Source: a virus (taxonomy: Duplodnaviria > Heunggongvirae > Uroviricota > Caudoviricetes). From it: a DNA stretch of 19,014 nt. Position numbers and translations under genes: made by a program. The notes under the pieces are model-generated. The model did no database searches and was not told the origin of the DNA. It saw only the letters and a list, made by a program, of their open reading frames with translations. How positions within the stretch are numbered: position 1 is the first letter of the stretch; each line of letters begins with the position of its first letter. The stretch lies in IMG/VR virus record IMGVR_UViG_2645727905_000013, positions 1-19,014 of that record; one strand, written 5' to 3'. Of the stretch, positions 535 to 16,976 are shown piece after piece.

Positions 535-1859
535 TGCACTGGCACCTTCAGAGGGATCACCGGCACAAAGCCGGGATGTGTAATGGCATTGCGCCGGATA
601 ATGTCCGCGTCATGCGCCGCGTTATCAAACCAGGTCGCCGCCAGCACCAGCGCGGGTAAAACCTCATCCGGCGTACGCTGAATGATCCGCGCAGACTGTT
701 CAAGGCGCGTGTTGATATCCGCATTCAGATCTGCTTTCACCCGGCGCAGCGCCAGAAACAGCACATCACTGGTTGTACGGGACAACTCCTTATCAATTGC
801 CGTATTCAGTGTGTCGCGAATGTCGGTCAGCTCTTCCCACGTTGGCAGGTCAACCGTGTTTTTCACCGCCGGTGCATTGTTCAGTGCCGGATGCGTGACG
901 GAAGGCCAGCCGGTGCTCTGCGCGGGTGTTGTTGACTGCCCCACTGCGGCATTCTGCATCACCGCGGAAGTTGTTGGCGCAGGCAATCGGGTAACGGCAT
1001 ACGCCGCTTCGCTGATTGCAGTCGTACGAAGGGTGCTGGCAACCACGTTACGCTGCTGCGTCGCTGTGGCGGTGGTTTTACTGTCCGTTTTCCAGACACC
1101 GCGCGGTTGCAGATCGCTGCCGAGGCTGACACCGGAAAGCGTTTTGATCATGGTGACCAGGTCGCTGGCGTTACCATAAAGGCGCTTCCCGGTACGCCAC
1201 ATTTTCTGCACCTGCTCAACGAAATTTTTGCCTGACGATGGCGGCGGCAGAAGTACCGAGATATCCCCCTGCAACAGCCTGGCGGCATCCGATACAGCAG
1301 AATCCACCACTTTCATCGCATCAGAAACATACCCCAGCATTATGCTGGCATTACCGATAACGTCGTTCTGCACAAAATCTGCCACGCCATCGATACTGAA
1401 ACCACTGAAACTGTCACTGATGCAGTCATCCAGTGCAGAACAGGATGACATCAGCGTCTGCGCCGTCGCCGCACCTGATGTGGGGTAAGAGAGTTCTCCC
1501 GCTTCGACAAACTTCAGGTCAAAGCGGACAATACGCCCTTCACTCTTCGATGTGCTGACCCGAACCTCCCCGTCAACACAGACTTTCAGCTCACCGTATG
1601 TCGGATGGACAAGCGTGCCGGGACCGGGTTTATTCAGCGCATCAATCAGGCGATCGCGCTGGTCAAAGCAGTCATCTCCCACCACATAAGCCGTGATGGA
1701 CGGGCGGAAAGTGACTTTTCCCAGATCTTCGGTATAGGGTTTGTCGCGGTTCGGGTATTCGTGCGTTTCCACACGACGACCGGTTCCCGCACTTTCTTCT
1801 TCAACCTTAAACGGCACACCGCGAAATGACGCGTCCTGAAGTCTGTCTTTCCACGTCAT
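531..1859 (-). CDS. Phage DNA circulation protein (Mu gp43/N-like)
   Basis: N-terminal MTWKDRLQDASFRGVPFKVEEES... matches the recalled signature of the Mu N / DNA-circulation N-terminal domain. Start placed at the internal ATG (1857-1859), which has a GGAG 7 nt upstream; the ORF-track start at 1901 has no SD and would include the upstream hairpin. Confidence 0.7.
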   Translation of the reverse strand: MTWKDRLQDASFRGVPFKVEEESAGTGRRVETHEYPNRDKPYTEDLGKVTFRPSITAYVVGDDCFDQRDRLIDALNKPGPGTLVHPTYGELKVCVDGEVRVSTSKSEGRIVRFDLKFVEAGELSYPTSGAATAQTLMSSCSALDDCISDSFSGFSIDGVADFVQNDVIGNASIMLGYVSDAMKVVDSAVSDAARLLQGDISVLLPPPSSGKNFVEQVQKMWRTGKRLYGNASDLVTMIKTLSGVSLGSDLQPRGVWKTDSKTTATATQQRNVVASTLRTTAISEAAYAVTRLPAPTTSAVMQNAAVGQSTTPAQSTGWPSVTHPALNNAPAVKNTVDLPTWEELTDIRDTLNTAIDKELSRTTSDVLFLALRRVKADLNADINTRLEQSARIIQRTPDEVLPALVLAATWFDNAAHDADIIRRNAITHPGFVPVIPLKVPVQ

Positions 1860-1896: not shown

Positions 1897-1919
1897 CTCA
1901 TTAACAGATTAATTTTTCA

Positions 1920-2717: not shown

Positions 2718-2723
2718 TGCCTC

Positions 2724-3623: not shown

Positions 3624-3785
3624 CGGTATTCACCTTTTTATTCACGCGCCGGATATCACCCGCTGCTTCACGGCGCAGCCAGTAGTTGTTCTCGTCAACA
3701 TTTCGCCCTTCGGCGGGCAAAAGGTCGCCGCGGGCAGGGTCAGGAACTGACCGCCCTTTAACAGGTTTGACAAACATGAGGATCC

Positions 3786-4139
3786 TCAGGAAGGAAGGGT
3801 TATTTCGGTGTGATGTTCGATATCGCCGTCAGGCCCGTTACCGGGCTCGAGATAATCAACATCAATCGCCAGCGTTTGCAGTTCATCCAGACTGTTCAGA
3901 TCATCCTGCTGGCGGGTATCGTCTTCGGTCAGCTCGCTGATGATCGAAAAATCGAACTGATAAATCAGCTCATGACGATTCAGATCCAGCAGCGTGCCGC
4001 CGTCATAGGTAATCGGGTTACCGCACGCTTCCGGGTTCCAGCCCAGCAGAGCCTTAAAGAGCATCTGCCGGATATCCGTTCCTTCTGACCATGCCACCAT
4101 ATCCAGGAAAGCTTTACGCTGGGAATTTAGTATCTGCAT
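3786..4139 (-). CDS. Endolysin remnant: lambda R-type N-terminus (about 22 aa) fused to unrelated acidic sequence
   Basis: MQILNSQRKAFLDMVAWSEGTD closely matches the recalled lambda R N-terminus MVEINNQRKAFLDMLAWSEGTD; the remainder does not resemble R. The gene sits immediately downstream of the holin, as R does. Confidence 0.4.
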   Translation of the reverse strand: MQILNSQRKAFLDMVAWSEGTDIRQMLFKALLGWNPEACGNPITYDGGTLLDLNRHELIYQFDFSIISELTEDDTRQQDDLNSLDELQTLAIDVDYLEPGNGPDGDIEHHTEITLPS

Positions 4140-4142
4140 AAA

Positions 4143-4469
4143 TTACTCCTTAGAGCCACCAAACTTGTTACCGATCACTCTCATTGCAGCCCCACGAATT
4201 GCATCGACACCAATCAGCCCAACACCGCCACCAATGGCAACAGAAAGAGATTTAGGCCATCCGACATACTCAAGAGCGGATGCAAAAGTCAGCGTCAGAG
4301 CACCACAGAGCAAAATCTCGAGCGTTTTTCGCTTCCACCCACCACCACCGCCAAAATAGGCAATGCGCAATCCAGCCATAACAATCGACATAATCACTGC
4401 GCCAAGAGGCGTATCTCCACGCCACCAGCTCTGGAACAACTCCAGCCAGGTATTTGGGTTATGAGGCAT
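4143..4469 (-). CDS. Holin, lambda S family (class I)
   Basis: 108 aa with hydrophobic helices and a charged C-terminus. Segment LRIAYFGGGGGWKRKTLEILLCGALTL parallels lambda S [24 protein letters not shown]. It lies directly upstream of the R-like ORF. Confidence 0.65.
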   Translation of the reverse strand: MPHNPNTWLELFQSWWRGDTPLGAVIMSIVMAGLRIAYFGGGGGWKRKTLEILLCGALTLTFASALEYVGWPKSLSVAIGGGVGLIGVDAIRGAAMRVIGNKFGGSKE

Positions 4470-4622
4470 TTGTAGTTATCTCTCACCTCGCCGATACAGG
4501 AGGTGTAAATTGAGGGAGTACCACGAACCGCAAATCAGAAGCGGAAACGTAAAAGAAGTCGAGCCAATGGATAAGTACTAGATAGACCAAGCCCAACGAA
4601 TACCAAGGCCCAGAAAAGACAA

Positions 4623-4645
4623 AACCCGCTCAATGGCGGGTTTAA
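4623..4645 (-). terminator. Intrinsic terminator hairpin upstream of holin (tR'-like candidate)
   Basis: Perfect 8-bp inverted repeat aaacccgc/gcgggttt with a 6-nt loop; on the minus strand it is followed by a T-rich tract (tgtcttttct). Confidence 0.4.
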
Positions 4646-4725
4646 GCTGTGTGGCGAAGTAACCACTCTTAACAGATTACAAGAATTTTTGCGGACCGCG
4701 TTAATGATTTTTAATCCCAAAGTCG

Positions 4726-4754
4726 TATTATTCGTTTTTTACTGTAGGAGTTAA
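4726..4754 (-). promoter_or_regulatory. Candidate sigma70 late promoter (pR'-like) reading toward the lysis genes
   Basis: Minus strand: TTAACT (-35), 17-nt spacer, ATAATA (-10). Located about 75-95 nt upstream of the hairpin terminator and about 250 nt upstream of the holin. Confidence 0.3.
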
Positions 4755-4759
4755 CAGGT
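4740..4759. promoter_or_regulatory. LexA (SOS) box-like motif TACTGT-N8-ACAG
   Basis: Sequence tACTGTaggagttaACAGgt has the conserved CTGT and ACAG arms at canonical 8-nt spacing, with an imperfect central region. It sits 10 nt upstream of the KAP NTPase ATG and overlaps the opposite-strand promoter candidate. Confidence 0.3.
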
Positions 4760-4766
4760 TTATATT

Positions 4767-5609
4767 ATGTTAGATACACTATCGTTCACTGAACGTGACG
4801 AGTTCCAACGAAGAAACATCGCTGAAAATATCATCAAGTTGCTAAAACCAGAGGCAGACATTTCACCACTGGTAATAGATGGCGCATGGGGAACAGGGAA
4901 ATCAGAATTTAGTATCAAACTGAAAAATCTCATTATTGAGCAAGAACCCGAATCTAAAGTTGTTTATATTGATGCCTTTAAAGGGGATCATGCAGAATCT
5001 CCATTACTTCTCATAACCTCTGCAATTGCCAGCATTTTGCCTGAGGAAGAAAAACAACACTTCATTAAGAGGTCTCTTCCTGCAATTCGATTTGGTTTAA
5101 AAACTGTACTAAAAGCTGGTGCAGGTTGGTTTTTACGACAGGAGGCTAGTGAAGTTGCCGAAGAATTCCAAGATGCGATGAAGAAAGCAAGCAATGCAGC
5201 AATAGATGGGACTATTGAAAGTTTGCTTGAAGACCATATGGAATCAGAGAAAAACATAAATTCACTTAAATCTTGCATCGAAAGTATTTCAGAAAATCAA
5301 AAGATAGTAATTATAATTGATGAATTAGATCGATGTAAGCCGAGTTTTTCAACAAATGTCATTGAAACAATAAAACACATTTTTGACATCAATAATGTCT
5401 TTTTTATTTTAGTTACAAACACAGAACAATTAAGAGCATCGATAAATCATATTTATGGTTATAGTATTAACTCACAAAAGTATCTTGACAAGTTTATAAA
5501 ATATACCATCACGCTTCCAGATACATGTTTGATAAATGGTCACGACGTATGTAAAGCCTCTGTTATATATTGGAATTACCTTGTAGAAAAAAACAAGATC
5601 ATTAAATGA
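4767..5609 (+). CDS. KAP-family P-loop NTPase, N-terminal part (Walker A and B present); gene appears frameshifted
   Basis: Walker A VIDGAWGTGKSEF (GxWGxGKS type) and Walker B IVIIIDELDRC (DELDRC) are the KAP NTPase signatures. AT-rich composition. Encoded on the opposite strand between Q and the lysis genes. Confidence 0.7.
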   Translation: MLDTLSFTERDEFQRRNIAENIIKLLKPEADISPLVIDGAWGTGKSEFSIKLKNLIIEQEPESKVVYIDAFKGDHAESPLLLITSAIASILPEEEKQHFIKRSLPAIRFGLKTVLKAGAGWFLRQEASEVAEEFQDAMKKASNAAIDGTIESLLEDHMESEKNINSLKSCIESISENQKIVIIIDELDRCKPSFSTNVIETIKHIFDINNVFFILVTNTEQLRASINHIYGYSINSQKYLDKFIKYTITLPDTCLINGHDVCKASVIYWNYLVEKNKIIK

Positions 5610-5757
5610 AATCAATAGCTTATCAGGTTATTTTATCCGTGATTTAATTCAACGAACCAACTTATCATTACGTGAAACACAAACATTTTCACGCAATCTT
5701 AACATTTTTCAACTGTTAAACGACAATGAAGACAACAGTAGTGATCGTTTTATAAAT

Positions 5758-6099
5758 ATGATCTTTGTCGTAGCTGTCTTCATACATTGCTTTGGTGACA
5801 AGGAAAAACTAAAACACGAAATTACCGCTGAATCTATATCTTATTTAGCAGACCTGCTTAAAATAAAAGAGATACCTTATTCTTATGAGATGAGTTCGAA
5901 AATCCCTAAAATATCAATTGTATTCTTTGGAATAATTAAAGACAGTATTACTCTTAATGAGCGATTTGCTCCTAAAAGTGATGAAGAACTAAAAAGATTC
6001 ACCAAAGTTTATACTGATTATGACCACCTAAATTTTTGGAGTACTACACCCAGAGAGTTATTGATAAAATATATCAATCAAATGTCATTCATTCAGTAA
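5758..6099 (+). CDS. Probable C-terminal continuation of the KAP NTPase gene in the +1 frame
   Basis: This frame is open from 5587 (just after a TAG at 5584-5586) through 6099, overlapping the end of the upstream ORF. Deleting one A from the A7 run (5587-5593) fuses the two ORFs into about 443 aa. The first ATG is only at 5758. Confidence 0.4.
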   Translation: MIFVVAVFIHCFGDKEKLKHEITAESISYLADLLKIKEIPYSYEMSSKIPKISIVFFGIIKDSITLNERFAPKSDEELKRFTKVYTDYDHLNFWSTTPRELLIKYINQMSFIQ

Positions 6100-6101
6100 A
6101 T

Positions 6102-6126
6102 AATACGCCCCTGCATGGGGCGTATT
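6102..6126. terminator. Bidirectional intrinsic terminator between convergent KAP moron and Q gene
   Basis: Perfect 10-bp stem aatacgcccc/ggggcgtatt with a 5-nt loop, flanked by T-rich tracts on both strands (tttattaaa on plus; ttattta on minus). Confidence 0.55.
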
Positions 6127-6129
6127 TTA

Positions 6130-6495
6130 TTAAACGTCCAAATCTAATGTTAGATCTAGCATGGAAAGGCAGCCATCAATAAATCCTTCGGCTAACTGTA
6201 TTTCTATACGTATCAATTTCTCATCCTTTCCACGCGCCTTTGCAATCTTACGCTTGGATATTCTGTATAAATAATGTGCCACAAGAAGCGAATGCTCATA
6301 AGGTCTTTTTTGCTTTAGACGAGCAAGACAACCTTCAATAATTAATGCATCACTATCCGAACAAGCCAAGCGTTTCTTGCTGGTATAGGGAAGAAGTCCC
6401 TTAAACCCAGCAGCTATAGGTGAATAATCAACACCAGAGTTATCACTCGCAGCCCATGCTCCCCAACGTTCAAGTATCATCTGAATATCACGCAT
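6130..6495 (-). CDS. Late-gene antitermination protein Q (QuuD / phage 82 Q-like family)
   Basis: MRDIQMILERWGAWAA...IAAGFKGL closely matches the recalled N-terminus of E. coli DLP12 QuuD. Start placed at the ATG at 6493-6495, which has an AGAAAGG SD; the ORF-track start codon at 6508-6510 is TTG. Confidence 0.75.
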   Translation of the reverse strand: MRDIQMILERWGAWAASDNSGVDYSPIAAGFKGLLPYTSKKRLACSDSDALIIEGCLARLKQKRPYEHSLLVAHYLYRISKRKIAKARGKDEKLIRIEIQLAEGFIDGCLSMLDLTLDLDV

Positions 6496-6512
6496 CACCT
6501 TTCTCCACAAAA

Positions 6513-7508
6513 TCAGGCCAGTACGCCAATTGCCAGCGCACGATCGATAAAACGAAATATCAGCTCCAGCTGAGAGCCATACTTCTCTTCAAATGCCACG
6601 GTATCCGCATGCAGCTCGTCGTGATGCTTTCTGCACAAAGGCAACACAAAGAGGTCATGCGCTTTTGTACCCATTCCACCCTGACCGTGGCCTATCAGAT
6701 GGTGGGGATCATCAGCAGGCTTTCCACAACATGCACACGGCTGTGTCTTAACCCAGCGCGTGTACTTTTCATTAACCCAGCGGCGGCTTTTTGGGCGTAA
6801 CATAAAAGACTCCGGCGACTCCGGATCCACTTTCAGCGCCAGCACCTTTTTCGCTTTATCCAGGATGATGCTGGTGGCAGGAACCGAAGGCACAAGGTCA
6901 CTTTCCCGGGTGACAGACGGCACAACAGGTTTCGGTAATCTCAGCGCCTTACGGGCTACGCTTTCAGGTAAGGCATCCGCCAGGTCATTACGAATCAGCC
7001 ACCAGCACAGTTCCGGCATTGTCACGGCATGGTTATCATCAAAATCGAGATCCCGACGGACTACAGACAACACCCAACGGGCACAGTTATCCGTTGCCAT
7101 TGATTCCAGCCGCTCCGTGAACTGATCACGTAACTGATTATCGCAGTGCCAGCACAGACGGATTGCGCCCGGCGCGTGTCGCATTGTGGTCATGTTCTCG
7201 CTGTGCCAGTCGGAATGAGGCCACTGGCAGCCTTTTTCACGAAGTAACCAGCTTTCAAGACATTCCACCCCACCAGCACGACGAATCACTGCCTCATTAC
7301 GGAACACGGCCCGAACGGCAGGATCATCCGCCAGCGGTTGTGATGCCGCCGGAACGGCACCACTGGCGAAAGATGAATAACGTTCCGGCTCAGGCTCCAG
7401 CAGGACACGCCCCTGCATAAACAGGGGCATCAGCTCTGAACCTGGCCTGAACAATACGATCCCCATACGCGGGGCAATTTCAGGGGTCAGTAGCGCTCTC
7501 ACGGTCAC
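6513..7508 (-). CDS. DUF968-like phage protein with C-terminal HNH/zinc-finger-like motif (YdfU-like)
   Basis: C-terminus CACCGKPADDPHHLIGHGQGG...CRKHHDELH has an HNH-type Cys/His pattern. It sits immediately upstream of Q, as ydfU does relative to quuQ in the Qin prophage (recalled). Confidence 0.5.
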   Translation of the reverse strand: MTVRALLTPEIAPRMGIVLFRPGSELMPLFMQGRVLLEPEPERYSSFASGAVPAASQPLADDPAVRAVFRNEAVIRRAGGVECLESWLLREKGCQWPHSDWHSENMTTMRHAPGAIRLCWHCDNQLRDQFTERLESMATDNCARWVLSVVRRDLDFDDNHAVTMPELCWWLIRNDLADALPESVARKALRLPKPVVPSVTRESDLVPSVPATSIILDKAKKVLALKVDPESPESFMLRPKSRRWVNEKYTRWVKTQPCACCGKPADDPHHLIGHGQGGMGTKAHDLFVLPLCRKHHDELHADTVAFEEKYGSQLELIFRFIDRALAIGVLA

Positions 7509-7509
7509 C

Positions 7510-8319
7510 TCAATGAACGGTATCGAGCAGCTTTAACAGCTCAGGGAATCGGGATTCGAAGAAATGCGGCTGCGTCTCGCGCGGATTTGCGGGACTGGTG
7601 ATGTTCTTGCCGAACATGCAGCCTTTCGCCGTCAGCGACCAGAATTTTTTGATGTTGTTAATCGCAGTGCGGCTGTATCGTTCACGTTGTTCAACGATCC
7701 CCAGCTTCGCCATCTGGTGATATGCCTGATTAGCTGTCAGGCGGATACCATACTGCTTCAGCAGTGCACTCAGTGACAGCGTGGGGCGGCTTGAGCCATC
7801 AGGCGCGTCAGCAGGAGCATCAATGGCATAGCGCGGTGCCAGATTCGGTAAGCCAACAGCCTCCTGGAGTTTCTGACAGGCACCAAGCACTGAAGAGTTA
7901 GACAGGTTTAACTCCCGGCGCATAAAGTCCAGCAGGATCACGCCAGCCTGCATCTTGTCAGCAGCCTGTCCGGATAATTTTTCCGGTGCGCTGGTTACCA
8001 TATCGAAAGTACGGATCACCTTCAGATGGAATGACGGGCTGATCCACATTGCATAGGCATACACCAGTTCCTTGCAGACATATGTTCCCCGTTCATTTCC
8101 CCCATGAATCACACTCACCGGGTCAACACCCAAATTCTGGGTGTTGGTCAATTCATGAACAAGCTCAACAGTTTGTTGGCTGGAAAGAAACTTTCCCGGC
8201 TCCTTGGTTCTGGCATTTGCACCAGATGCTACTGCTGCGCGATGCAGATCGTTCAGGCTGTAACGCCCATAAGCATCACGACGAACTTCAATACCATCAA
8301 TGACCATCAGATTATTCAT
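7510..8319 (-). CDS. KilA-N domain protein (antirepressor-like)
   Basis: N-terminal MVIDGIEVRRDAYGRYSLNDLHRAA... is typical of the KilA-N domain. Start placed at the ATG at 8317-8319, which has a GAGGAG SD about 8 nt upstream. Confidence 0.65.
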   Translation of the reverse strand: MNNLMVIDGIEVRRDAYGRYSLNDLHRAAVASGANARTKEPGKFLSSQQTVELVHELTNTQNLGVDPVSVIHGGNERGTYVCKELVYAYAMWISPSFHLKVIRTFDMVTSAPEKLSGQAADKMQAGVILLDFMRRELNLSNSSVLGACQKLQEAVGLPNLAPRYAIDAPADAPDGSSRPTLSLSALLKQYGIRLTANQAYHQMAKLGIVEQRERYSRTAINNIKKFWSLTAKGCMFGKNITSPANPRETQPHFFESRFPELLKLLDTVH

Positions 8320-8338
8320 ACTTCGTTTCTCCTCTTGA

Positions 8339-8728
8339 TCAGGCGGCTGCACCCGCCGTTTTCTCGTACTTACTGATAGTGATCTCGACCTTCCCTTCCG
8401 GGATAACCGGTCCCCACTCCACCAGCATTCTTTTCACCTGACTGTCGTCTTCCCACACACCCGCGTGGGTCAGGGCGTCAAACAGCGCCTTGTTATAGTT
8501 GTCCAGATCGCGGATCCGGTTATCCGGAGGAAACAACACGATCTCCACTGAAGCAGGTGCCGACGTTGGTTTTGGCAGACGACGTAACTGCTCAACTATT
8601 GCTGCACACGCTGCGCTCTGGAATTTGCGCCCCGCCGCGCTTATCAGGCTCTTACCTGCAAACGCCCCTTTGTTGGGGTGTCGCCAGTACGTGTTCACGC
8701 TGGGCGGGAAAGGCAGGATCAGCTTCAT
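8339..8728 (-). CDS. rusA: Holliday junction resolvase RusA
   Basis: 129 aa; ...PPSVNTYWRHPNKG...RDLDNYNKALFDALTHAGVWEDDSQV... parallels E. coli RusA (PPSNNRYYRH...[27 protein letters not shown]). Its ATG overlaps the stop of the upstream gene. Confidence 0.8.
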   Translation of the reverse strand: MKLILPFPPSVNTYWRHPNKGAFAGKSLISAAGRKFQSAACAAIVEQLRRLPKPTSAPASVEIVLFPPDNRIRDLDNYNKALFDALTHAGVWEDDSQVKRMLVEWGPVIPEGKVEITISKYEKTAGAAA

Positions 8729-9051
8729 ACTTTCAGGCCCCTCTCATGTAACCAGTGGGCTGCACGCAGCCTGGCGTTTTCCTCACCGGCAAGCAGTGAG
8801 CGGATAATCCCGACCGCCTCGCTGTCGTCGTCCTTCACCGCGGTATGAAGCGTTATCCCCCGGGCCACGCCACGCTTTATCGTGATGACGCCTTTTTTCT
8901 CCAGCGCACGAAGATGCTCCACCGCTGCATTCACCGAACGGTATCCCAGCATGGTTGCCACCTCCTGATTGGTTGGTGGGAAGCCACGTTCTTTCTGATA
9001 AGAAATCAGCATATCCAGCACCTGCTGCTGGCATTGAGTTAACGTCGTCAT
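8725..9051 (-). CDS. LexA N-terminal DNA-binding-domain-only protein (no S24 peptidase domain)
   Basis: MTTLTQCQQQVLDMLISYQKERGFPPTNQEVATMLGYRSVNAAVEHLRALEKKGVITIKRGVARGITL aligns with the LexA N-terminus ([68 protein letters not shown]). It retains an AGE linker motif but ends about 25 aa later. Start (ATG at 9049-9051) overlaps the upstream stop (TAATG). Confidence 0.65.
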   Translation of the reverse strand: MTTLTQCQQQVLDMLISYQKERGFPPTNQEVATMLGYRSVNAAVEHLRALEKKGVITIKRGVARGITLHTAVKDDDSEAVGIIRSLLAGEENARLRAAHWLHERGLKV

Positions 9052-9545
9052 TAAGCCCCCACGTAATTCCCTGACAGATACCACTCTTCACCCGATGCAG
9101 CGCGCTTGCTGCTTTTCCGTAAGCACCGCTCACGACGCGCCAGAAAATTGTTTCGTTCTGGCTGGGAGTGGCTTTCACGGAATGCCGCCATCCACACGGT
9201 TGCAGCACGACGAAATAAGCCCCTGGACTCCAGTTCTTCCGCCTGGCGGGCCAGGCACAAAATCACCCGCGGGTCGTTAGTGCCGACATAGAAATTGCGC
9301 ACAGGTCTGGTTTCACGAACTGGTTGCCGTTCCGCCTCCGGAGATATCTTTGTCTGGCGCGGGAAATGTCTGCGTGTATCCCCTTCACAACGGTGAGCCA
9401 CACGCCCACTCTGACGTAACTTGCTTGCTGACTGCAGAACGCGCTGCCGTGAGTAACCTGCAAAAGCATCAGCAATGTCTCCGGAAGTACCCCCTGGATG
9501 GGCTTCAATGAATTTCTGAACTTCATTCAAAAGACTCATAATCAC
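9051..9545 (-). CDS. Hypothetical regulator; C-terminal region PerC/ANR-like
   Basis: 164-aa ORF whose ATG overlaps the stop of the replication gene (ATGA). C-terminal ARQAEELESRGLFRRAATVWMAAF...RRERCL resembles the recalled PerC/Pch motif GLWRRAAxRW. The N-terminal half may be a winged helix. Confidence 0.4.
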   Translation of the reverse strand: MIMSLLNEVQKFIEAHPGGTSGDIADAFAGYSRQRVLQSASKLRQSGRVAHRCEGDTRRHFPRQTKISPEAERQPVRETRPVRNFYVGTNDPRVILCLARQAEELESRGLFRRAATVWMAAFRESHSQPERNNFLARRERCLRKSSKRAASGEEWYLSGNYVGA

Positions 9546-10483
9546 CCCCTGAATCCTGCCGGGATCTGGCTGTAGTCCACATTGTCGTAACTGGCTTTGA
9601 AGTACGGGTCTTCACGTTTTTCTGTGTGCGTGCTGACGGACGGCGATAAGCGCAGGGAAAGCTCATCCCATTTTTCCCGCAACTTCGACGGGCTGAGCAC
9701 GTTACGGCACCAGAACGGATCGCGGCTGACGCGGCTGTACATCTCGCAGATTTGTTTGTGAGTACGACCATCCTGCACACACATCAGGCGAATTTCGTTT
9801 GCCCAGGCTGTCCAGTTCGGTTCTTTGGGACGAATCACCTCGCCGTCACATTCGGCGGCCTGCTCGTACAGGGCGATGATTTTTTTCCAGAGCCACTGTG
9901 CGCAGGTCAAATCATCCTGCGTTCCCCACTGACGCTTTTTAGGGCTGAATACAACCGCATCAGGATGGCGAGTTAAAAAATCCTGTTCATCCGTCTGCGT
10001 GTCCGGTTGCGAAGCGTCCGGACGAGAAGTTTTTTTATCTGACGGATCATGTTTTGATTTTACTGACGGATCCCCGCCAGATTCTGACGGGTGAAAACCC
10101 GCTTTTTTGCCAGATTTCGACGCATCAAATTTTGACGGGTCAGATTTTGATGCGTCAGATTTTGACGGGTCAGAATCTGACAGTTGAGAAAATGCCGCTG
10201 CCTGAAGCTTCGCAACGTTAAGCTGATAAACATTCGACGCATTGCGGTTACCCTGGCGACGCGCCTTACGCGTTAACCAGCCTTCTGCTTCCAGCCGTGC
10301 GATAGCCGTTCTGACGGTACTCATCCCCGCGCCAATCTGGCGGGCAATGGTTTCAATTGATGGCCAGCACACACCTTCGTCATTACTGAAATCAGCCAGG
10401 CGGGCCATAATTGCCACGCTGGATAACTTCATGCCTGATGCAGCGCAACCATCCCATACATAGCCGGTTAATTTAGTACTCAT
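9542..10483 (-). CDS. Phage replication initiation protein (lambda O-like role), N-terminal wHTH, internal repeat linker
   Basis: N-terminal wHTH-like segment SIETIARQIGAGMSTVRTAIARLEAEGWL. A repetitive linker (SDSDPSKSDASKSDPSKFDASKSG) is encoded by tandem 15-bp DNA repeats. Located downstream of cro and the cII-position genes. Confidence 0.6.
   Translation of the reverse strand: MSTKLTGYVWDGCAASGMKLSSVAIMARLADFSNDEGVCWPSIETIARQIGAGMSTVRTAIARLEAEGWLTRKARRQGNRNASNVYQLNVAKLQAAAFSQLSDSDPSKSDASKSDPSKFDASKSGKKAGFHPSESGGDPSVKSKHDPSDKKTSRPDASQPDTQTDEQDFLTRHPDAVVFSPKKRQWGTQDDLTCAQWLWKKIIALYEQAAECDGEVIRPKEPNWTAWANEIRLMCVQDGRTHKQICEMYSRVSRDPFWCRNVLSPSKLREKWDELSLRLSPSVSTHTEKREDPYFKASYDNVDYSQIPAGFRG
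10038..10185. repeat. Iteron-like tandem direct repeats (candidate replication origin) inside the replication initiator gene
   Basis: Four or more tandem 15-bp units (caaattttgacgggt, cagattttgatgcgt, cagattttgacgggt, cagaatctgacagtt) plus degenerate upstream copies, with an adjacent T-rich tract (agtttttttatc, 10029-10040). Confidence 0.55.
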
Positions 10484-10652
10484 GACCGACCTCTATTTCC
10501 CTGAATTTACGACGAAACTGTTCGAGCGGACTGAAGCATTCATGCTCATAACCTTCGCGGAGGTAGATAACCCGTTGTGTTTCCGGCTCCCAACGAATGA
10601 CTCTGACGGGCACTCCGTAGTGATCTTTGAACCAGCGGTTAACTTGTCGCAA
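10473..10652 (-). CDS. Small ORF (59 aa, TTG start) overlapping the 3' end of ORF 10493..10831; alternatively the displaced C-terminus of that gene
   Basis: AAGGAG SD 8 nt upstream of TTG; translation [59 protein letters not shown] is protein-like. Its stop overlaps the start region of the replication gene. Below the 60-aa ORF-track cutoff. Confidence 0.3.
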
Positions 10653-10831
10653 AGGACTGTCTCCTTCTGCCGGTTGAAATCACCCACAGCCCACTCTGCA
10701 AAGCTGTGGGTTACAATTTCCCTGTCACCTGGTACATTCACTGCATAGCAATATTCCACCTTCGCTTTTCCACCCGGTACAGGAAGCGCAATCAGTTGCG
10801 AGCGACGGTAGTGTGTTGTTAAACTGTTCAT
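10493..10831 (-). CDS. Hypothetical protein (C-terminal third looks non-protein-like; possible frameshift)
   Basis: ATG overlaps the stop of the upstream gene (ATGA at 10828-10831), which supports the start. A second frame with a strong SD carries protein-like sequence over its 3' part. Confidence 0.35.
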
Positions 10832-11442
10832 GCGTTAGTTTCTCCACAACCAGAAGCAATCGACGCCACGACGCCCGGAGCTGCACACTCGCGGGCGTCA
10901 TTACTTTCTGAAATGCAAAAAATTTTGTAGACAAGTGCTGCATGCTCCTGCAGCTTCGAAATTGAGAGATACAGCTCGTCGTTAATTGCTGTCTTCTCAT
11001 GCGGTTCCACTACACCGTCTTCAATTGCTGAACGAATCTGTTTTGAATAACTGCCGATCTGTTCAATGACTTCCAGCAGGCGCTGGTTAATATCGGCGTT
11101 GTCCACATCCTCGACGTCAGGAAGAGACACAAAGACGCCATTTGCAGACTGCGCCACAGCGTCAGCAATGAAGTGAGTTCCACCAGCACGTTGCAAAATC
11201 ATTGCCCATCCCAGCGGGAAAATCTGATCGCCATCTGCACGAAGGCGGTTAAATAATGCGTTCTCTGTTACATCCAGCCAGTCAGCTGCTTCAGCGTAAC
11301 CACCCGGCAACGCTGCGATAGTTTTTCTGACAGCTTTCACGTACCACTCAGGCTGTTTTTCTACTTTCCAGTGATGCTTACCCACGGTTAGCCTCATCGT
11401 TCTGTGGTTTCTGTTAATCGATTTATCCATTAGATTTTTCAT
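10828..11442 (-). CDS. Hypothetical early protein in the cII/YdaT position downstream of cro
   Basis: Long ORF directly following cro. Start uncertain: ATGs at 11440-11442 and 11428-11430 overlap or abut the cro stop; the ORF-track start at 11499 would overlap cro by 77 nt. Function not recognised. Confidence 0.4.
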
Positions 11443-11623
11443 AAAGCTCAGGTTTAAATGGCAACCGTCCGCAAGTTCTATATGCAGCTTCTGCTGCACG
11501 TCCTTTTGGAATTAACTGGCCCGGACGGTTTCGCCACTGATAAACGGCTTCAGTTGTTATGCCGAAAAAAGCAGCAACTTTCTCAATACTGCCGAAGTAG
11601 CTTTCGATATCGTCAGTTGTCAT
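11423..11623 (-). CDS. cro: Cro-like HTH regulator
   Basis: 66-aa HTH protein (GITTEAVYQWRNR) transcribed divergently from the CI-like repressor, with a GGAGGG SD upstream. Confidence 0.7.
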   Translation of the reverse strand: MTTDDIESYFGSIEKVAAFFGITTEAVYQWRNRPGQLIPKGRAAEAAYRTCGRLPFKPELYEKSNG

Positions 11624-11720
11624 ACGCCCTCCAAACTAAGTTTTATTAGATGCTAATTACAAATCTATCTTTGGTCAACAAAAACTAAGATTACTTAGTA
11701 ATTAAAGAAATGGTGCTCCT
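11624..11720. promoter_or_regulatory. cI-cro intergenic operator/promoter region (OR-like)
   Basis: 97-bp AT-rich divergent intergenic region containing the palindrome ACTAAGattaCTTAGT (11684-11699) and a further ACTAAG copy (11635-11640). A possible minus-strand promoter is TTGACC, 17 nt, TAGCAT. Confidence 0.5.
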
Positions 11721-12347
11721 ATGGAAACGGTTGGTCAGCGTATAAAAGCTCTGAGAAGAGTAACCAGAACGTCCCAGAAAGAATTGGGTAAATTTTGTGG
11801 AGTAAGCGACGTTGCTGTGGGGTACTGGGAGAAAGACATCAATACCCCTGGTGGGGAGGCACTTTCGAAATTAGCGAAGTTCTTCAATACGTCAATAGAT
11901 TACATTCTTTATGGTGCTGAGTTTGAAGGCAAACTCGTCACAAACATGCGCAGAGTTCCTGTAATATCGTGGGTTCAGGCTGGGCAGTTTACTGAGTGCA
12001 GGGCAGCAGAAGTGTTTAGTGAAGTGGACAAGTGGGTAGATACATCATTAAAGATTGGTGATAACTCATTTGCATTAGAGGTTAAAGGTGACTCCATGAC
12101 TAACCCTAATGGCCTCCCAACAATACCAGAAGGCGCAACAGTGATTGTAGATCCAGATGCAGAACCTCGTCATGGAAAAATAGTCATCGCTCGACTTGAT
12201 GGAACAAACGAAGCTACAGTAAAAAAATTAGTCATCGATGGCCCTCAAAAGTTTTTAGTGCCATTAAATCCTCGGTATCCCAACATCCCTATCAATGGTA
12301 ATTGCCTTATCATTGGTGTAGTCAAAGGAGTTCAATACGAACTCTAA
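11721..12347 (+). CDS. cI: CI-like prophage repressor (HTH-XRE N-domain plus S24 LexA-type autopeptidase C-domain)
   Basis: N-terminal HTH (QKELGKFCGVSDVAVGYWEKD), a putative Ala-Gly cleavage site (VQAGQF), catalytic Ser in GDSM and Lys in TVKKL. Confidence 0.85.
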   Translation: METVGQRIKALRRVTRTSQKELGKFCGVSDVAVGYWEKDINTPGGEALSKLAKFFNTSIDYILYGAEFEGKLVTNMRRVPVISWVQAGQFTECRAAEVFSEVDKWVDTSLKIGDNSFALEVKGDSMTNPNGLPTIPEGATVIVDPDAEPRHGKIVIARLDGTNEATVKKLVIDGPQKFLVPLNPRYPNIPINGNCLIIGVVKGVQYEL

Positions 12348-12357
12348 GACCTCTCTT

Positions 12358-12430
12358 TTCTAACTAAGGCACCGAACTAAGAAAAGTTTGGTGTTTTCTC
12401 TTGCCATAATAACTAAGTTAAGTTAGATTT
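12358..12430 (+). promoter_or_regulatory. Candidate OL/pL-like region downstream of cI (repeated ACTAAG motifs; possible promoter)
   Basis: ACTAAG at 12363-12368, 12377-12382 and 12413-12418, the same hexamer as in the cI-cro operators. Possible promoter TTGCCA (12401-12406), 17 nt, TAGATT (12424-12429). Confidence 0.25.
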
Positions 12431-12534
12431 TATGTCAAAGATAACGAACAGGCAGGACGCGCACGAAGTAGCCCGCCCGGTACGTACGAAGACCGGGATG
12501 ATTCGTTAGCGGATGATTTCAGTGGAGAGAATAG

Positions 12535-12843
12535 ATGAATGAGCAGGATTTGAAGCATGTGATCGCATTGTTGCTGGAAGACGCTAAACGTTTGCAGCAG
12601 ATAGAGCCAAATGCAGGCACTGAGGCCCGTATTTTGTTAGCAAAACAGGCATTAAAGACTTGCGGGGCGCAAGACCCTGATCGAACCAAGTTCATGAATT
12701 TCATGGCTAACACGATCACCCCACTGCCATGCAATGGAGAGAGGGTTAGCCGTGTTTATCACGACACAATGGTTAAGGCATTAAGAATCGAGCTTGATGG
12801 GCTTAGGCGTAAGATCGTGATGAACAAAATCGTTGCCAACTAA
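12535..12843 (+). CDS. Hypothetical immunity-region protein
   Basis: 102-aa ORF with a GGAGAG SD at appropriate spacing; first gene downstream of cI. No family recognised. Confidence 0.4.
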   Translation: MNEQDLKHVIALLLEDAKRLQQIEPNAGTEARILLAKQALKTCGAQDPDRTKFMNFMANTITPLPCNGERVSRVYHDTMVKALRIELDGLRRKIVMNKIVAN

Positions 12844-13122
12844 GGAAGCAGACGGAAGTAAGCATGCGCTTTGTTCAAATTTGCAGACAAATATATTTGC
12901 GTCAACACCAGCACTGTTAGCAATGGAAAAAGTTTGATCAAGGATTTGTTGGCAGTTCATTGTGCTTTTGAGGATATATCCCTCTGGAATCAGTCTGCAG
13001 CAGCTATCGTCAGACTCTTTGATTGTTTTCTGGTACAGAAAGTTAAGCATTAATTCTTCAAATTTTTTGGTCTGTTCGGCTGTTGCTTCAAACAGACGAA
13101 CGTGAACATAAAACTGGTTCAT
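12781..13122 (-). CDS. Hypothetical protein encoded antisense to the early-left operon (immunity-region moron candidate)
   Basis: ORF with an AGGAAA SD 5 nt upstream of the ATG at 13120-13122 (protein MNQFYVHVRLFEATAEQ...). Relatively AT-rich. Convergent with 12535..12843, overlapping it by 63 nt. Confidence 0.35.
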   Translation of the reverse strand: MNQFYVHVRLFEATAEQTKKFEELMLNFLYQKTIKESDDSCCRLIPEGYILKSTMNCQQILDQTFSIANSAGVDANIFVCKFEQSACLLPSASLVGNDFVHHDLTPKPIKLDS

Positions 13123-13401
13123 TAGATTTCCTTGCTGGCTGTGTGAGAACTCCAGCATACCACCGAGCCTGAAGTGGTGAAAAGACAGGCAATAGTTTCA
13201 TTGCTGTGTGTAGTCTTGGCGGTACCAGCTTGTACCCTTGCTTCCGGCTGGTACCGTCCTTTTTACAAAACAGAGAAGAGTATCACCGGACGACGGGCTC
13301 ATAACCCAATCCATCCGGGCGGCTGCCACCGCAGGTGTTCTTCTCTGTTTTGTGGAGAAACCAACCGACCTTGCAGGGTCGATATGATGAGGAGCAGCAA
13401 A

Positions 13402-13764
13402 ATGGCTAGCGAACGCAGTACTGATGTGCAGGCATTTATCGGGGAGCTGGACGGCGGCATATTTGAAACCAAAATCGGCGCTGTTCTCAGTGAAGTCGCT
13501 TCCGGTGTGATGAACACAAAAACCAAAGGGAAAGTCTCACTCAACCTGGAAATCGAACCATTTGATGAGAACCGTGTGAAAATCAAACACAAACTCTCAT
13601 ATGTTCGCCCGACTAACCGCGGGAAAATTTCCGAAGAAGACACCACCGAAACGCCGATGTATGTCAATCGCGGTGGTCGCCTGACTATTCTGCAGGAAGA
13701 CCAGGGACAATTACTGACTCTTGCCGGTGAACCTGACGGAAAACTCCGCGCAGCAGGTCGTTAA
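13402..13764 (+). CDS. Hypothetical phage protein (possibly YfdP-like)
   Basis: Strong GAGGAG SD 8 nt upstream of the ATG at 13402. The ORF-track N-terminal extension from 13174 is Cys/Arg-rich and implausible. Confidence 0.45.
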   Translation: MASERSTDVQAFIGELDGGIFETKIGAVLSEVASGVMNTKTKGKVSLNLEIEPFDENRVKIKHKLSYVRPTNRGKISEEDTTETPMYVNRGGRLTILQEDQGQLLTLAGEPDGKLRAAGR

Positions 13765-13829
13765 TATCGTTTTTAATAAACTGATTATTTATCTCATCAC
13801 TGAATATCTTTATATAGTGAGGACTTATT

Positions 13830-14654
13830 ATGTCTCAGAACTTAGACGCAACCGCAATTAATCAAATCCATGCCCTTATTTCTGCTCAGGGTGTTAATGA
13901 AATTATCAGTAAGATTGGTGCCGATGCTGTGGCATTGCCTGAGAATTTCCGCATTCATGATCTGGAAAAATTTAATTTAAATCGCTTCCGTTTCCGAGGT
14001 GCGCTTTCCACTGCAAGCATCGATGACTTTACCCGTTATTCTAAAGATCTTGCAGATGAAGGCACCCGCTGCTTTATCGATGCTGATAATATGCGTGCCA
14101 TCAGTGTGCTTAACCTGGGCACTATTGATGAACCAGGTCACGCAGATAACACCGCCACTCTCAAACTGAAAAAGGCAGCACCGTTCTCTGCTCTGTTGTC
14201 TGTTAACGGCGAGCGTAACTCCCAGAAGTCACTGGCAGAATGGATTGAAGACTGGGCCGACTACCTTGTGGGCTTTGATGCTAATGGTGACGCTATTCAG
14301 GCAACAAAAGCGGCTGCGGCTGTCCGTAAAATCACGATTGAAGCAAACCAGACCGCTGATTTTGAAGATAATGACTTCAGCGGCAAACGCTCCCTGATGG
14401 AGTCTGTCGAAGCGAAGACCAAAGATATTATGCCAGTGGCATTTGAATTTAAATGCGTTCCGTTTGAAGGTCTGAAAGAACGTCCGTTTAAATTACGTCT
14501 CAGCATTATCACTGGCGATCGTCCTGTACTGGTTCTGCGCATTATTCAGCTGGAAGCAGTGCAGGAAGAAATGGCTAACGAATTTCGTGATCTGCTTGTT
14601 GAGAAATTCAAAGACAGCAAAGTAGAAACCTTTATTGGTACTTTCACCGCCTGA
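13830..14654 (+). CDS. Hypothetical phage protein, 274 aa (YfdQ-like by size and context)
   Basis: Well-formed ORF with a GAGGA SD. Size and position next to an HD-domain gene match the yfdQ-yfdR arrangement recalled from the E. coli CPS-53 prophage. Confidence 0.5.
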
Positions 14655-14666
14655 TTTCATTACTGC

Positions 14667-14688
14667 AAATGCCCCTGCGGGGGCATTT
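14667..14688 (+). terminator. Strong hairpin (possible partial terminator) between the 274-aa gene and the HD-domain gene
   Basis: Perfect 9-bp stem aaatgcccc/ggggcattt with loop tgcg; the downstream T-tract is short (ttt). Confidence 0.3.
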
Positions 14689-14782
14689 ATGGAGACGTAA
14701 TTAACTCAATAATCGCCGGATGGTAAGGGCTTCTTTTTACCAAAATTCAGTGCGGTGCAGCGCAAATAACGTGGAGAACAAA

Positions 14783-15331
14783 ATGTCATTTATTAAAACT
14801 TTTTCCGGGAAGCATTTTTATTATGACAAGATAAATAAAGACGACATCGTGATTAACGATATCGCGGTTTCCCTTTCAAATATCTGTCGCTTTGCAGGAC
14901 ATCTTTCACACTTCTACAGTGTCGCCCAGCATGCGGTGCTTTGCAGCCAGCTGGTGCCACAGGAATTTGCTTTTGAAGCATTAATGCATGATGCAACAGA
15001 AGCTTATTGCCAGGACATCCCCGCTCCACTGAAACACCTTCTTCCTGACTATAAACGGATGGAAGAAAAAATAGATGCCGTAATCCGTGAGAAATACGGG
15101 TTACCCCCGGTTATGAGCACGCCCGTGAAATATGCCGATCTCATCATGCTGGCAACCGAACGCCGCGATCTCGGGCTTGATGATGGCTCTTTCTGGCCTG
15201 TACTGGAAGGCATCCCGGCAACAGAGATGTTCAACGTGATTCCACTGGCACCGGGCCATGCCTACGGGATGTTTATGGAACGCTTTAAAGAGCTACATAA
15301 GATACATAAACAATCCAGACAGCGAAATTAA
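14783..15331 (+). CDS. HD-domain phosphohydrolase (YfdR-like 5'-deoxynucleotidase family)
   Basis: His...HD pattern (RFAGH, AQHAV, LMHDATEAY). Start placed at the ATG at 14783 with a GGAGAA SD; about 182 aa. Confidence 0.65.
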   Translation: MSFIKTFSGKHFYYDKINKDDIVINDIAVSLSNICRFAGHLSHFYSVAQHAVLCSQLVPQEFAFEALMHDATEAYCQDIPAPLKHLLPDYKRMEEKIDAVIREKYGLPPVMSTPVKYADLIMLATERRDLGLDDGSFWPVLEGIPATEMFNVIPLAPGHAYGMFMERFKELHKIHKQSRQRN

Positions 15332-15359
15332 CTAGTGAAATAGTTTTGTAGCAAAAGAA

Positions 15360-15620
15360 ATGAGGTTATCAAAAATGCTTCAAATGCTGACACTTGAGGA
15401 ATGGGCTACGGAAAAATACAGAAGTAATCCTCCAAGTGTGTCCACATTGCGTCGTTATGCTAAGCAGAATTTATTTTGTCCACCGGCAATGAAACAAGGT
15501 CGACTATGGCGAGTGCGTGAGGACGCAGAGTTAGTTGGGGAATTAGTTACTCCTGTCATCAAGAAAAGTGATTCTATTATTCTACAAAGGATTTTAAGTA
15601 ATGGCAGCCAGACCACGTAA
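15360..15620 (+). CDS. xis: Excisionase (lambda Xis-like)
   Basis: LTLEEWATEKYRSNPPSVSTLRRYAKQNLFCPPAMKQGRLWRV parallels lambda Xis (YLTLQEWNARQRRPRSLETVRRWVRECRIFPPPVKDGREYLF). Overlaps the integrase start by 20 nt. Start may be the internal ATG at 15375 or 15384. Confidence 0.7.
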   Translation: MRLSKMLQMLTLEEWATEKYRSNPPSVSTLRRYAKQNLFCPPAMKQGRLWRVREDAELVGELVTPVIKKSDSIILQRILSNGSQTT

Positions 15621-16728
15621 AAATAATGTTTCAGTCCCGAACTTGTATCCGCTCTATAGCAGAAAAGTAAATAAAGTCTATTGGCGATATAAGCATCCAG
15701 TGACCGGGAAGTTTCATTCTTTGGGCACAAACGAAGCTGAAGCCATTGCTATTGCCACTGAGGCCAATACACGCCTGGCTGAGCAAAGAACCCGGCAGAT
15801 TCTGGCTATCAGTGACAGGATCGCAACCAGCAAAGGAAAAGCGATAACAACATCAACATGGTTAGACCGCTACCAGGCCATCCAGGATGACAGGCTGAAA
15901 AGTGGTGATATAAGACTCAACACCTATAAGCAGAAAGCCAAACCAGTATCCTTGCTCAGGGAACGAGCAGGAATGAAATTGATTTCAGCTGTTGATGTCA
16001 GGGATATAGCACAATTGCTTGACGAGTATATCGCTGCCGGGCAACCGAGAATGGCCCAAGTTGTAAGGTCTGTATTGATTGATGTGTTTAAGGAAGCACA
16101 GCACTATGGCGAAGTTCCGCCAGGGTATAACCCTGCTCTTGCGACGAAGCAACCCAGAAGGAAAATTACCCGTCAACGCCTCAGCCTGGAAGAATGGCAA
16201 AAAATCTTTGATATCGCAGATGCCAGTCATCGTTATATGGGAAATGCCATGCTGTTAGCACTGGTTACTGGCCAGCGGTTAGGTGATATTTCGCGTATGA
16301 AATTTAGCGATATTTGGGATGATCATCTTCACGTCATTCAGGAAAAGACCGGGAGCAAAATCGCCATCCCGCTTTCTCTTCGCCTCAATGCGATTAACTG
16401 GAGTTTACGCGATGTAGTATCCCGCTGCCGTGACTATGCAGTCAGCCCATACCTTGTACATTTTTTCCGTACGACTTCACAGGCTGAACGTGGCGCACAG
16501 GTTAAATCCAATACATTGACGATGAATTTCAGTAAAGCGAGGGATTTTGCAGGAATTGACTGGGGTGATGGCTCACCCGCAACATTCCATGAACAAAGGT
16601 CTTTATCTGAACGTCTGTACAAAGAACAGGGGTTAGACACACAAAAACTACTTGGTCATAAAACGCAACAACAAACCGATCGTTATCATGACGATCGCGG
16701 CAAAGGATGGAGCAAAGTTGCGTTGTGA
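15601..16728 (+). CDS. int: Tyrosine site-specific integrase, lambda Int family
   Basis: 375 aa. N-terminal arm-binding region (VPNLYPLYSRK...HPVTGKFHSLG) and C-terminal catalytic region (TFHEQRSLSERLYKEQ...LLGHKTQQQTDRYHDDRG) parallel lambda Int (PPNLYIRNNG..., TFHELRSLSARLYEKQ...LLGHKSDTMASQYRDDRG). Confidence 0.9.
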   Translation: MAARPRKNNVSVPNLYPLYSRKVNKVYWRYKHPVTGKFHSLGTNEAEAIAIATEANTRLAEQRTRQILAISDRIATSKGKAITTSTWLDRYQAIQDDRLKSGDIRLNTYKQKAKPVSLLRERAGMKLISAVDVRDIAQLLDEYIAAGQPRMAQVVRSVLIDVFKEAQHYGEVPPGYNPALATKQPRRKITRQRLSLEEWQKIFDIADASHRYMGNAMLLALVTGQRLGDISRMKFSDIWDDHLHVIQEKTGSKIAIPLSLRLNAINWSLRDVVSRCRDYAVSPYLVHFFRTTSQAERGAQVKSNTLTMNFSKARDFAGIDWGDGSPATFHEQRSLSERLYKEQGLDTQKLLGHKTQQQTDRYHDDRGKGWSKVAL

Positions 16729-16976
16729 AAATTTAAGCGTCCCAACGCCACCTTGAACTTCTCACCACACATGAAAAAGAACCAAACTGTTCGCTTTGAG
16801 CGAAAGGCGGACGTCATGAGACGCGTATAACATATATTGTAAATATAAGGTTCGATTATTTGCTTTCTTAACGTAAAATAAGTATGGAATGGTCTTGCTT
16901 ACGTAAGGTCTTTTAAGTTATATCTAGTAGTTATGATTTTAAATAGGTCTTTCGTGCTAATAAATAAGGTGGTTGC
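16729..16976. other. Probable attachment-site / prophage boundary region (core not identified)
   Basis: Non-coding AT-rich segment immediately downstream of int with a marked compositional shift. Contains ttacgtaa-type palindromes (16870-16910). Confidence 0.3.

Follow-up and report, generated by a model that had tools for sequence, protein, structure and literature searches.

A DUF4222 gene nested out of frame in ymfM of an e14-type prophage, and evidence for selection on an open overprinting frame

The window analysed here, a stretch of 19,014 nt (positions 1 to 19,014 of IMG/VR virus record IMGVR_UViG_2645727905_000013), contains the immunity and replication region of a lambdoid Escherichia coli prophage of the e14/SfIV/mEp460 type, with the rightward genes of the prophage on the minus strand. 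Directly upstream of the replication gene, two open reading frames (ORFs) overlap by 160 nt in different frames. The outer ORF is ymfM, of 112 amino acids (aa), and the inner ORF encodes a 59 aa protein of the DUF4222 family. It is highly probable that both are real translated ORFs and that the openness of the second frame, the one in which ymfM crosses DUF4222, is under selection.

Layout of the overlapping frames

The frames are named here as follows: frame A is that of ymfM, which is the +1 frame of DUF4222; frame B is that of DUF4222, which is frame A minus 1; and frame C is the +2 frame of DUF4222. The features of the overlap are these.

10493..10831, minus strand: ymfM ORF (frame A), 112 aa, with its ATG at 10831 and a TAG stop at 10495..10493
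10661..10831, minus strand: N-terminal module (N-module) of YmfM, codons 1–57, the sole part of YmfM that behaves as a conserved protein
10496..10660, minus strand: YmfM tail, codons 58–112, in the +1 frame over DUF4222, kept stop-free and with an unconstrained amino-acid sequence
10680..10682, minus strand: TGA closing frame B upstream of the DUF4222 start
10661..10666, minus strand: AAGGAG Shine–Dalgarno sequence of the DUF4222 gene, with an 8 nt spacer before the TTG
10473..10652, minus strand: DUF4222 gene (frame B), TTG start at 10652..10650, 59 aa, TAA stop at 10475..10473
10481..10495, minus strand: junction TAG-AGGTCGGTC-ATG, with 9 nt between the frame-A stop and the replication-gene ATG downstream, which share a frame

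The ATG of ymfM overlaps the TGA of the upstream ymfL-like gene as ATGA (10831..10828), and the TAA of DUF4222 lies 5 nt beyond the ATG of the replication gene (10483..10481). An initial annotation, made from the sequence alone, had described an ORF at 10493..10831 with a well-supported start and, within it, a second frame that opens after a TGA, has AAGGAG 8 nt before a TTG, encodes 59 residues and ends in an overlap with the replication gene. All of these elements are present where it placed them, the supported start being the ATG that overlaps the upstream stop. It had also judged the last third of the long ORF to be out of frame; an out-of-frame end does exist, but it makes up the last half of the ORF, from about codon 58, and runs in the +1 frame of DUF4222.

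The GAAGGA of the DUF4222 Shine–Dalgarno sequence is able to base-pair with a UCCUUU stretch that takes in the first two bases of the TTG (10650..10667, minus strand). In the E. coli e14 type this pairing is a 6 bp hairpin in the minimum free energy (MFE) fold, in a fold that is not significant overall, and the sequence at this site differs in other genera. If the hairpin is real, the DUF4222 start would be unmasked by translation of ymfM.

Constraint on the two frames

The 59 aa product matches the Pfam family DUF4222 (PF13973) over profile positions 3–52 of 53 (E=8.6e-19, 67.3 bits against a cut-off of 27), and also matches phrog_1343 (E=4e-34). Family members are typically 59–70 aa. RefSeq/PGAP annotates the ORF as WP_001250269.1, the only gene that it calls here, and leaves the 175 nt after ymfL blank. 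A purine-rich ribosome-binding motif and a start codon are found at the equivalent place in 23 of 23 representative DUF4222 loci; the start is mostly ATG, the SfV type and a few others have GTG, and TTG is confined to the E. coli e14 type. In most loci checked, DUF4222 lies directly upstream of a replication-initiator (O-like) gene, the exception being SfV-type loci, where an Ash-Rha regulator follows.

When variable sites in the overlap are sorted by DUF4222 codon position, 47 of 50 third positions vary, against 23 first and 15 second positions. Amongst close IMG/VR relatives (51 haplotypes), every one of the 14 sites that are polymorphic within the overlap is the third position of a DUF4222 codon. 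No other sequence in the region is as strongly constrained as the 59 aa frame. Because the variation is concentrated at these third positions, DUF4222 is under strong purifying selection and the YmfM tail sequence is not. An AlphaFold2 (AF2) model of DUF4222 is a five-stranded SH3-like beta-barrel with a predicted local distance difference test score (pLDDT) of 83.5. A fold search with it returned generic KOW, Tudor, SH3 and KorB-C domains at E>=0.03, from which no function can be transferred, and no sequence relative with a solved structure was found for YmfM or DUF4222. DUF4222 is thus a genuine, independently initiated, strongly conserved small beta-barrel gene that accompanies the replication initiator. 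One of the two options offered by the initial annotation, a genuine small gene missed by a 60 aa cut-off, is borne out by the family match, the conserved ribosome-binding site and start, the RefSeq entry and the signs of purifying selection.

The 112 aa ORF is identical at 111 of 112 residues to ymfM (b1148) of E. coli K-12, which occupies the same place between ymfL and a replication-gene remnant, and its match to phrog_1170 has E=7.6e-70. In PHROGs the 112 aa form (phrog_1170), the N-terminal part alone (phrog_20047, matched by the N-module) and DUF4222 (phrog_1343) are three distinct families; no Pfam or NCBIfam model for YmfM was found. The N-module carries the motif R..QL...P.PG ... VG, of which R..QL...P.PG is common to four divergent sequence types. 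In two alignments its variable columns are distributed over frame-A codon positions 1, 2 and 3 as 25, 24 and 36 and as 18, 15 and 32, and polymorphic sites amongst close relatives as 2, 6 and 14. It occurs as a stand-alone gene of 53–68 aa in Yersinia phage YeP2 and in Providencia, and almost every locus retains the (A/G)TGA junction with the upstream regulator's stop. The N-module is a real, fast-evolving conserved protein part of about 57 aa.

The remainder of YmfM behaves differently. Second positions of tail codons, which are the third positions of DUF4222, are variable in 47 of 50 codons, stops being the one thing avoided. The composition of the tail follows the GC content of the host, being Ser/Thr-rich in E. 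coli and hydrophobic in Providencia. In the AF2 model of YmfM, residues 6–59 have pLDDT values of 50–72, and residues 60–112 fall below 45 with no secondary structure; the model as a whole (pLDDT 48) was too poor for a fold search. The tail is constrained only to stay open, with its amino-acid sequence free to vary. Truncated YmfM variants in the databases were considered as nonsense alleles and rejected as such, since they are contig ends or rearrangement or insertion junctions. Four variants (P0020, P0021, P0024 and P0026) change over to unrelated sequence either at ...SRKHNG(L) or a few residues from it, which suggests that the DUF4222/ymfM overlap contains a breakpoint at which insertions or rearrangements recur.

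Frame A is free of stops across the whole of DUF4222 in 34 loci, in which frame C has 1–8 stops. These loci come from E. coli, Shigella, Klebsiella, Citrobacter, Enterobacter, Kluyvera, Kosakonia, Raoultella, Atlantibacter, Buttiauxella, Silvania, Phytobacter, Pantoea and Providencia. For the 33 unique genes of this first set, with no stop in frame A and 1–8 in frame C in every case, the probability of an open +1 frame was computed exactly, taking as given the amino-acid sequence of the protein and the codon usage of its neighbours. It lies between 0.015 and 0.11 per gene. When the 33 genes are grouped into 16 clusters (synonymous-codon identity <=0.70), the openness probabilities multiply to 1e-20.

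The codons themselves indicate how the frame is kept open. A Leu or Val codon of the form xTG or xTA would create a stop in frame A at L/V4 (next residue Asn), at V18 and V28 (next residue Ile) and at V16 when an A begins the following codon; solely CTT, CTC, GTT and GTC occur at these sites. GTG and CTG are frequent at the harmless sites, such as V14 before Pro (10/15) and L31 before Arg (19/29). Across the 16 cluster representatives, Val/Leu codons end in G or A at 0 of 50 sites before a codon starting with A, against 24 of 44 before a codon starting with C or T (Fisher p=1.2e-10). A general codon-pair bias was rejected as the cause: in 121 neighbouring long ORFs the fraction of G/A-ending codons before A-starting codons is 0.62.

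A second scan took in distant DUF4222 sequences and gave 105 unique 47-codon cores. Frame A is open in 81 of these and frame C in none. The 24 interrupted cores carry 1–4 stops, and 21 of them carry 3–4; their existence led to rejection of the idea that openness is an intrinsic property of DUF4222. Serratia-like interrupted cores have GTG-ATT and GTG-ACC at the critical Val positions, and Serratia BZS1-like, phiNP and EKP1-like members are examples of DUF4222 without an overprinting frame. Where interrupted loci were inspected, the upstream gene (a large one of KilA-N/Rha type, or another) just terminates at the point where DUF4222 starts; openness thus goes together with an ORF that reads in from upstream. 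Taken together, these results show selection, acting on synonymous codons of DUF4222, that keeps the +1 frame open. What this adds to the initial annotation is that the 112 aa ORF is also a real, known gene, and that its frame is actively kept open in diverged relatives. That annotation had set full-length, in-frame conservation of the 112 aa protein against an absence of conservation in the 59 aa frame; homologues combine a long frame that is open over its full length with a 59 aa frame that is the better conserved, so that neither branch applies in the form in which it was put.

Ribosome transit and alternative readings

In the e14 type the frame-A stop lies exactly 9 nt before the ATG of the replication gene; this spacing is found in 23 of the 34 loci and is independent of the replication-gene variant and of the position of the DUF4222 stop. 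The e14-type stop arises where a rare codon of DUF4222, ATA or TTA, precedes GAG, AAG or ACG. In the 117 aa forms the DUF4222 stop overlaps the replication ATG, and the +1-frame stop lies 7 nt after that ATG. The Providencia arrangement is split: the N-module (58–68 aa) ends where DUF4222 begins, and a second ORF of 55–58 aa, also kept open, occupies the +1 frame; its ATG overlaps the N-module stop as TGATG or ATGA, and it ends 4–5 nt before the replication gene. In Entomohabitans DUF4222 is mostly deleted, yet the ymfM ORF ends at the start of the replication gene.

Two other types of locus have a longer frame crossing DUF4222. In a clade that includes L149, L151, L153–L155 and L163 (the ORF at ~1310..1762), the read-in ORF is about 113–150 aa long and not N-module-like; it starts as ATGA on the upstream stop and crosses DUF4222 in the +1 frame. 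The annotated 'transcriptional regulator' ORFs of 278–385 aa in SfV (orf37; L008 1852..2688), ST64B (sb41; L009 1858..3015) and locus L032 (2352..3503) begin at a ymfL-type stop, cross an unannotated DUF4222 in the +1 frame and continue into Phage_ASH and Rha domains.

A mechanism can be proposed in which ymfM would start by translational coupling on the ymfL stop codon. Ribosomes loaded at the ymfL/ymfM junction would then be carried across the DUF4222 cistron in the +1 frame and released at the start of the replication gene. This stretch of mRNA would stay translated, and the replication gene would stay coupled to the upstream genes, whatever the frequency of initiation at DUF4222. Termination–reinitiation coupling through ATGA and TGATG overlaps is familiar from polycistronic operons. 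The e14 order, ymfL-[ATGA]-ymfM...TAG-9 nt-ATG, and the Providencia order, N-module-[TGATG/ATGA]-ORF-A...stop-4/5 nt-ATG, both resemble it: at successive junctions the stop and start codons overlap or lie within ~10 nt of each other, as in a coupled chain, the dependence of the downstream gene being putative. The difference from such operons is that the coupling ORF would traverse the whole of another gene in another frame. That transit of the ribosome, and not the tail peptide, is what is selected seems to us an evenly balanced proposition. It is consistent with the free third-position variation, the GC-tracking tail, the lack of AF2 structure in the tail, the separate ORF of Providencia, the 9 nt stop spacing with its rare codons and the end of the Entomohabitans ORF.

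Several observations weigh against transit, or against selection on openness more generally. The frame of the L149-type clade ends 34–79 nt inside the replication gene and not at its start. In the SfV/ST64B type the frame runs without a stop into the Ash and Rha domains, and in these phages it is perhaps no more than an extension at the N-terminus of a long protein. The rationale for a relay is weakened in that ribosomes translating DUF4222 likewise finish at the start of the replication gene, which has its own GAGG motif. No significant RNA structure that would mask the replication-gene ribosome-binding site, and so oblige the gene to depend on coupling, was detected (z=+1.9), nor any covariation. 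The interrupted cores represent only about four or five clades, so that the association with a read-in ORF rests on few independent events, and a literature search found no ribosome-profiling or proteomics evidence for translation of ymfM. A sequence-independent disordered tail, for example a degron, would moreover leave an identical signature of a frame that is open but unconstrained.

That last point is the basis of the alternative in which the YmfM tail is a functional but sequence-independent disordered spacer, or a degradation tag that keeps a division inhibitor short-lived, with selection acting on the polypeptide. It would account for the unconstrained open frame and for the unstructured residues 60–112 of the AF2 model, and it fits the observation that expression of the ymfM ORF causes filamentation. 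The division inhibitor SulA, which is controlled by Lon proteolysis, offers an analogy. This explanation nevertheless meets difficulties in Providencia, where the N-module is separate and the +1 ORF is open nonetheless, and in YeP2, where the N-module has no tail; it is because of these two arrangements that transit is favoured over it. The swing of the tail from Ser/Thr-rich to hydrophobic with host GC content is also hard to square with one physical role, and a disordered-tail function is considered unlikely, if well short of negligible. Much less probable is the view implied by RefSeq, that DUF4222 is the sole gene and the 112 aa ORF a chance frame or short upstream ORF whose extension is meaningless. 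PGAP calls just DUF4222, neither Pfam nor NCBIfam models YmfM, and the tail is unconstrained, all of which suit this view. Against it stand the coding-type variation and the conserved motifs of the N-module, a start that is maintained on the stop of ymfL, and an openness of the frame that greatly exceeds chance and disappears in the absence of an ORF reading in.

The other option in the initial annotation was that the 59 aa frame is the displaced C-terminus of a frameshifted gene. The relevant candidates are a frameshifted gene, or a programmed -1 frameshift, whose true product would be a fusion of the YmfM N-terminal part with DUF4222, which does lie in the -1 frame of ymfM. Fused homologues, for which the initial annotation had proposed a search, do exist: a search with YmfM recovered five proteins that join the N-terminal part to DUF4222 (P0031, P0053, P0060, P0065 and P0090), but each has a different junction, and they are probably sporadic indels or assembly errors. 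Amongst close IMG/VR relatives, 79 of 80 aligned over the full length (51 haplotypes), and 79 of these 79 are unfused with both frames intact; the unfused arrangement holds across genera. A frameshifted pseudogene (the FRAMESHIFTED gene) was rejected in view of the five inconsistent fusion junctions and of the 79 relatives that keep both frames; the displaced part, moreover, is not relaxed but is the most constrained. Programmed -1 frameshifting is known from lambda G/GT, dnaX and IS3 orfAB, and the present locus shares with these systems overlapping ORFs in a -1 relation and a Shine–Dalgarno-like element near the start of the overlap. It differs in having no slippery heptamer, structure or conserved fusion, and its zero frame has no early stop past the putative site. 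No X XXY YYZ heptamer was found in the frame-A codons from 10684 to 10493 and no A AAA AAG in the region, no significant stimulatory RNA structure at the start of the overlap (10580..10700; MFE z=0.39), and the sequences upstream of the DUF4222 start differ between loci (23 examined). A programmed -1 frameshift was rejected for want of a heptamer and structure. DUF4222 has its own ribosome-binding site, and mostly ATG starts, and a frameshift would leave unexplained the 53 further open codons of frame A. The initial annotation's displaced-C-terminus option thus fails, and frameshifting of either kind is the least credible of the readings considered.

Neighbouring genes, the SfiC phenotype and wider comparison

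The genes around the overlap, and an ORF on the opposite strand, are as follows.

11721..12347, plus strand: LexA-family cI-like repressor
11423..11623, minus strand: Cro-like gene, transcribed rightward in the prophage
10828..11385, minus strand: ymfL-like regulator, Phage_CP76/cII-like and a match to the NCBIfam YmfL equivalog, with a TGA stop at 10830..10828
9542..10483, minus strand: replication initiator-like gene, HTH_36, 313 aa, with its ATG at 10483..10481
10482..10748, plus strand: antisense ORF of 88 aa, probably a by-product and not a gene

The start of the ymfL-like gene at 11385 was adopted from the RefSeq annotation of K-12. The longest ORF at this position is 10828..11499 (223 aa, GTG start) and overlaps the cro-like gene by 77 nt; the RefSeq form begins at the ATG equivalent to 11385 and has 185 aa, of which the NCBIfam YmfL model spans residues 16–156. 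The replication gene carries its own GAGG motif and is intact in the window, with 313 aa as in UTI89; in K-12 it is a remnant. In the e14 element of K-12 NCM3722 (L001 1717..3009) this remnant measures 141 nt and is followed by a truncated terminase, and the ymfL-ymfM-DUF4222 block is intact despite it. Within the replication-initiator gene of the window, 4.3 tandem copies of the 15 nt unit CAGATTTTGACGGGT lie at 10111..10174. The array resembles iterons, as if an origin lay inside the initiator gene, which is the arrangement of lambda O. A scan of 10200..11700 for known RNA families, promoters and terminators gave no Rfam match and no promoter-like site.

The antisense ORF is interrupted in 8 of 33 homologues, and stops in it can come only from TTA, CTA or TCA codons in DUF4222. 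Some records of Klebsiella and Escherichia phages list it as a hypothetical protein (L004 and L007 1635..1922, minus strand); it is probably a spurious, trivial by-product. Annotation of the locus is in conflict more widely: GenBank lists ymfM for K-12, RefSeq/PGAP lists only DUF4222, and phage records list either, both, or the antisense ORF. The evidence presented here supports both sense-strand ORFs as real.

The nesting of DUF4222 bears on a published phenotype. The ymfM gene has been reported as the SOS-inducible division inhibitor SfiC of e14, whose expression inhibits FtsZ-ring formation and causes filamentation (Ansari et al., bioRxiv 10.1101/2020.11.19.390815). The evidence for filamentation comes from a pBAD24 clone of the 339 nt ymfM ORF, from library clones and from a delta-ymfM deletion, and ymfM is treated there as a simple 112 aa gene accounting for SfiC, a 35-year-old division inhibitor, and neither the nested DUF4222 ORF nor the unconstrained tail is mentioned (Ansari et al., bioRxiv 10.1101/2020.11.19.390815). 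The 339 nt clone contains the Shine–Dalgarno sequence, the TTG and codons 1–53 of DUF4222, which is the whole of the Pfam domain; the library clones carry both genes, and the deletion removes both. The published experiments consequently cannot separate YmfM from the nested DUF4222, and the phenotype could belong to either product. SfiC may be the N-module, full-length YmfM or DUF4222, since clone and deletion both include DUF4222. No paper mentioning the ymfM/DUF4222 overlap was found in a literature search, and a search on DUF4222 function gave nothing relevant.

It is possible in principle that the division block is caused wholly or partly by the DUF4222 protein. The clone, the library clones and the deletion all involve it, the overlap is unmentioned in the papers found, and its product is well folded and highly conserved. 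The positional link to a replication gene in many phages suggests instead a role in replication, and expression from a TTG start would fall below that of the vector-driven ymfM ATG. Kil and DicB are known division inhibitors of phages, and small, fast-evolving proteins like the N-module resemble these. On balance, responsibility of DUF4222 for the SfiC phenotype is doubtful. A joint proposal, that in lambdoid prophages a relay ORF (ymfM, or a coupled separate ORF) would insulate replication-gene expression from translation of the nested gene and that SfiC is perhaps DUF4222 or the 57 aa N-module and not YmfM as annotated, is put forward only tentatively; it falls short of an even chance.

The ORF in the window differs from e14 ymfM of K-12 (111/112 identical, same position) in that its replication gene is intact. 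Compared with other DUF4222/phrog_1343 proteins, the inner gene shares the full profile, the size and the place, and differs in the second open frame that overprints it and in its TTG start. Nested out-of-frame gene pairs are known in phages, lambda Rz/Rz1 and phiX174 D/E being examples. As in those pairs, a small gene with its own start lies inside another in a different frame, and both frames are kept in relatives; in those pairs, however, both products are functional proteins with constrained amino-acid sequences, whereas in ymfM the part of the outer gene that overlaps avoids stops and shows nothing more. DUF4222 appears to be older than the frame that overprints it, because it is also found without that frame.

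Both genes are already present in databases, and the bare finding of two ORFs is ordinary. What appears to be unreported is a dual-frame arrangement maintained by selection, together with the resulting ambiguity over SfiC. The locus provides a clean natural case of selection on a reading frame only for its openness, with controls supplied by the harmless sites and by sister clades that lack a read-in ORF. It should be useful for the study of overprinting and of translational coupling, and for the scoring of overlapping ORFs.

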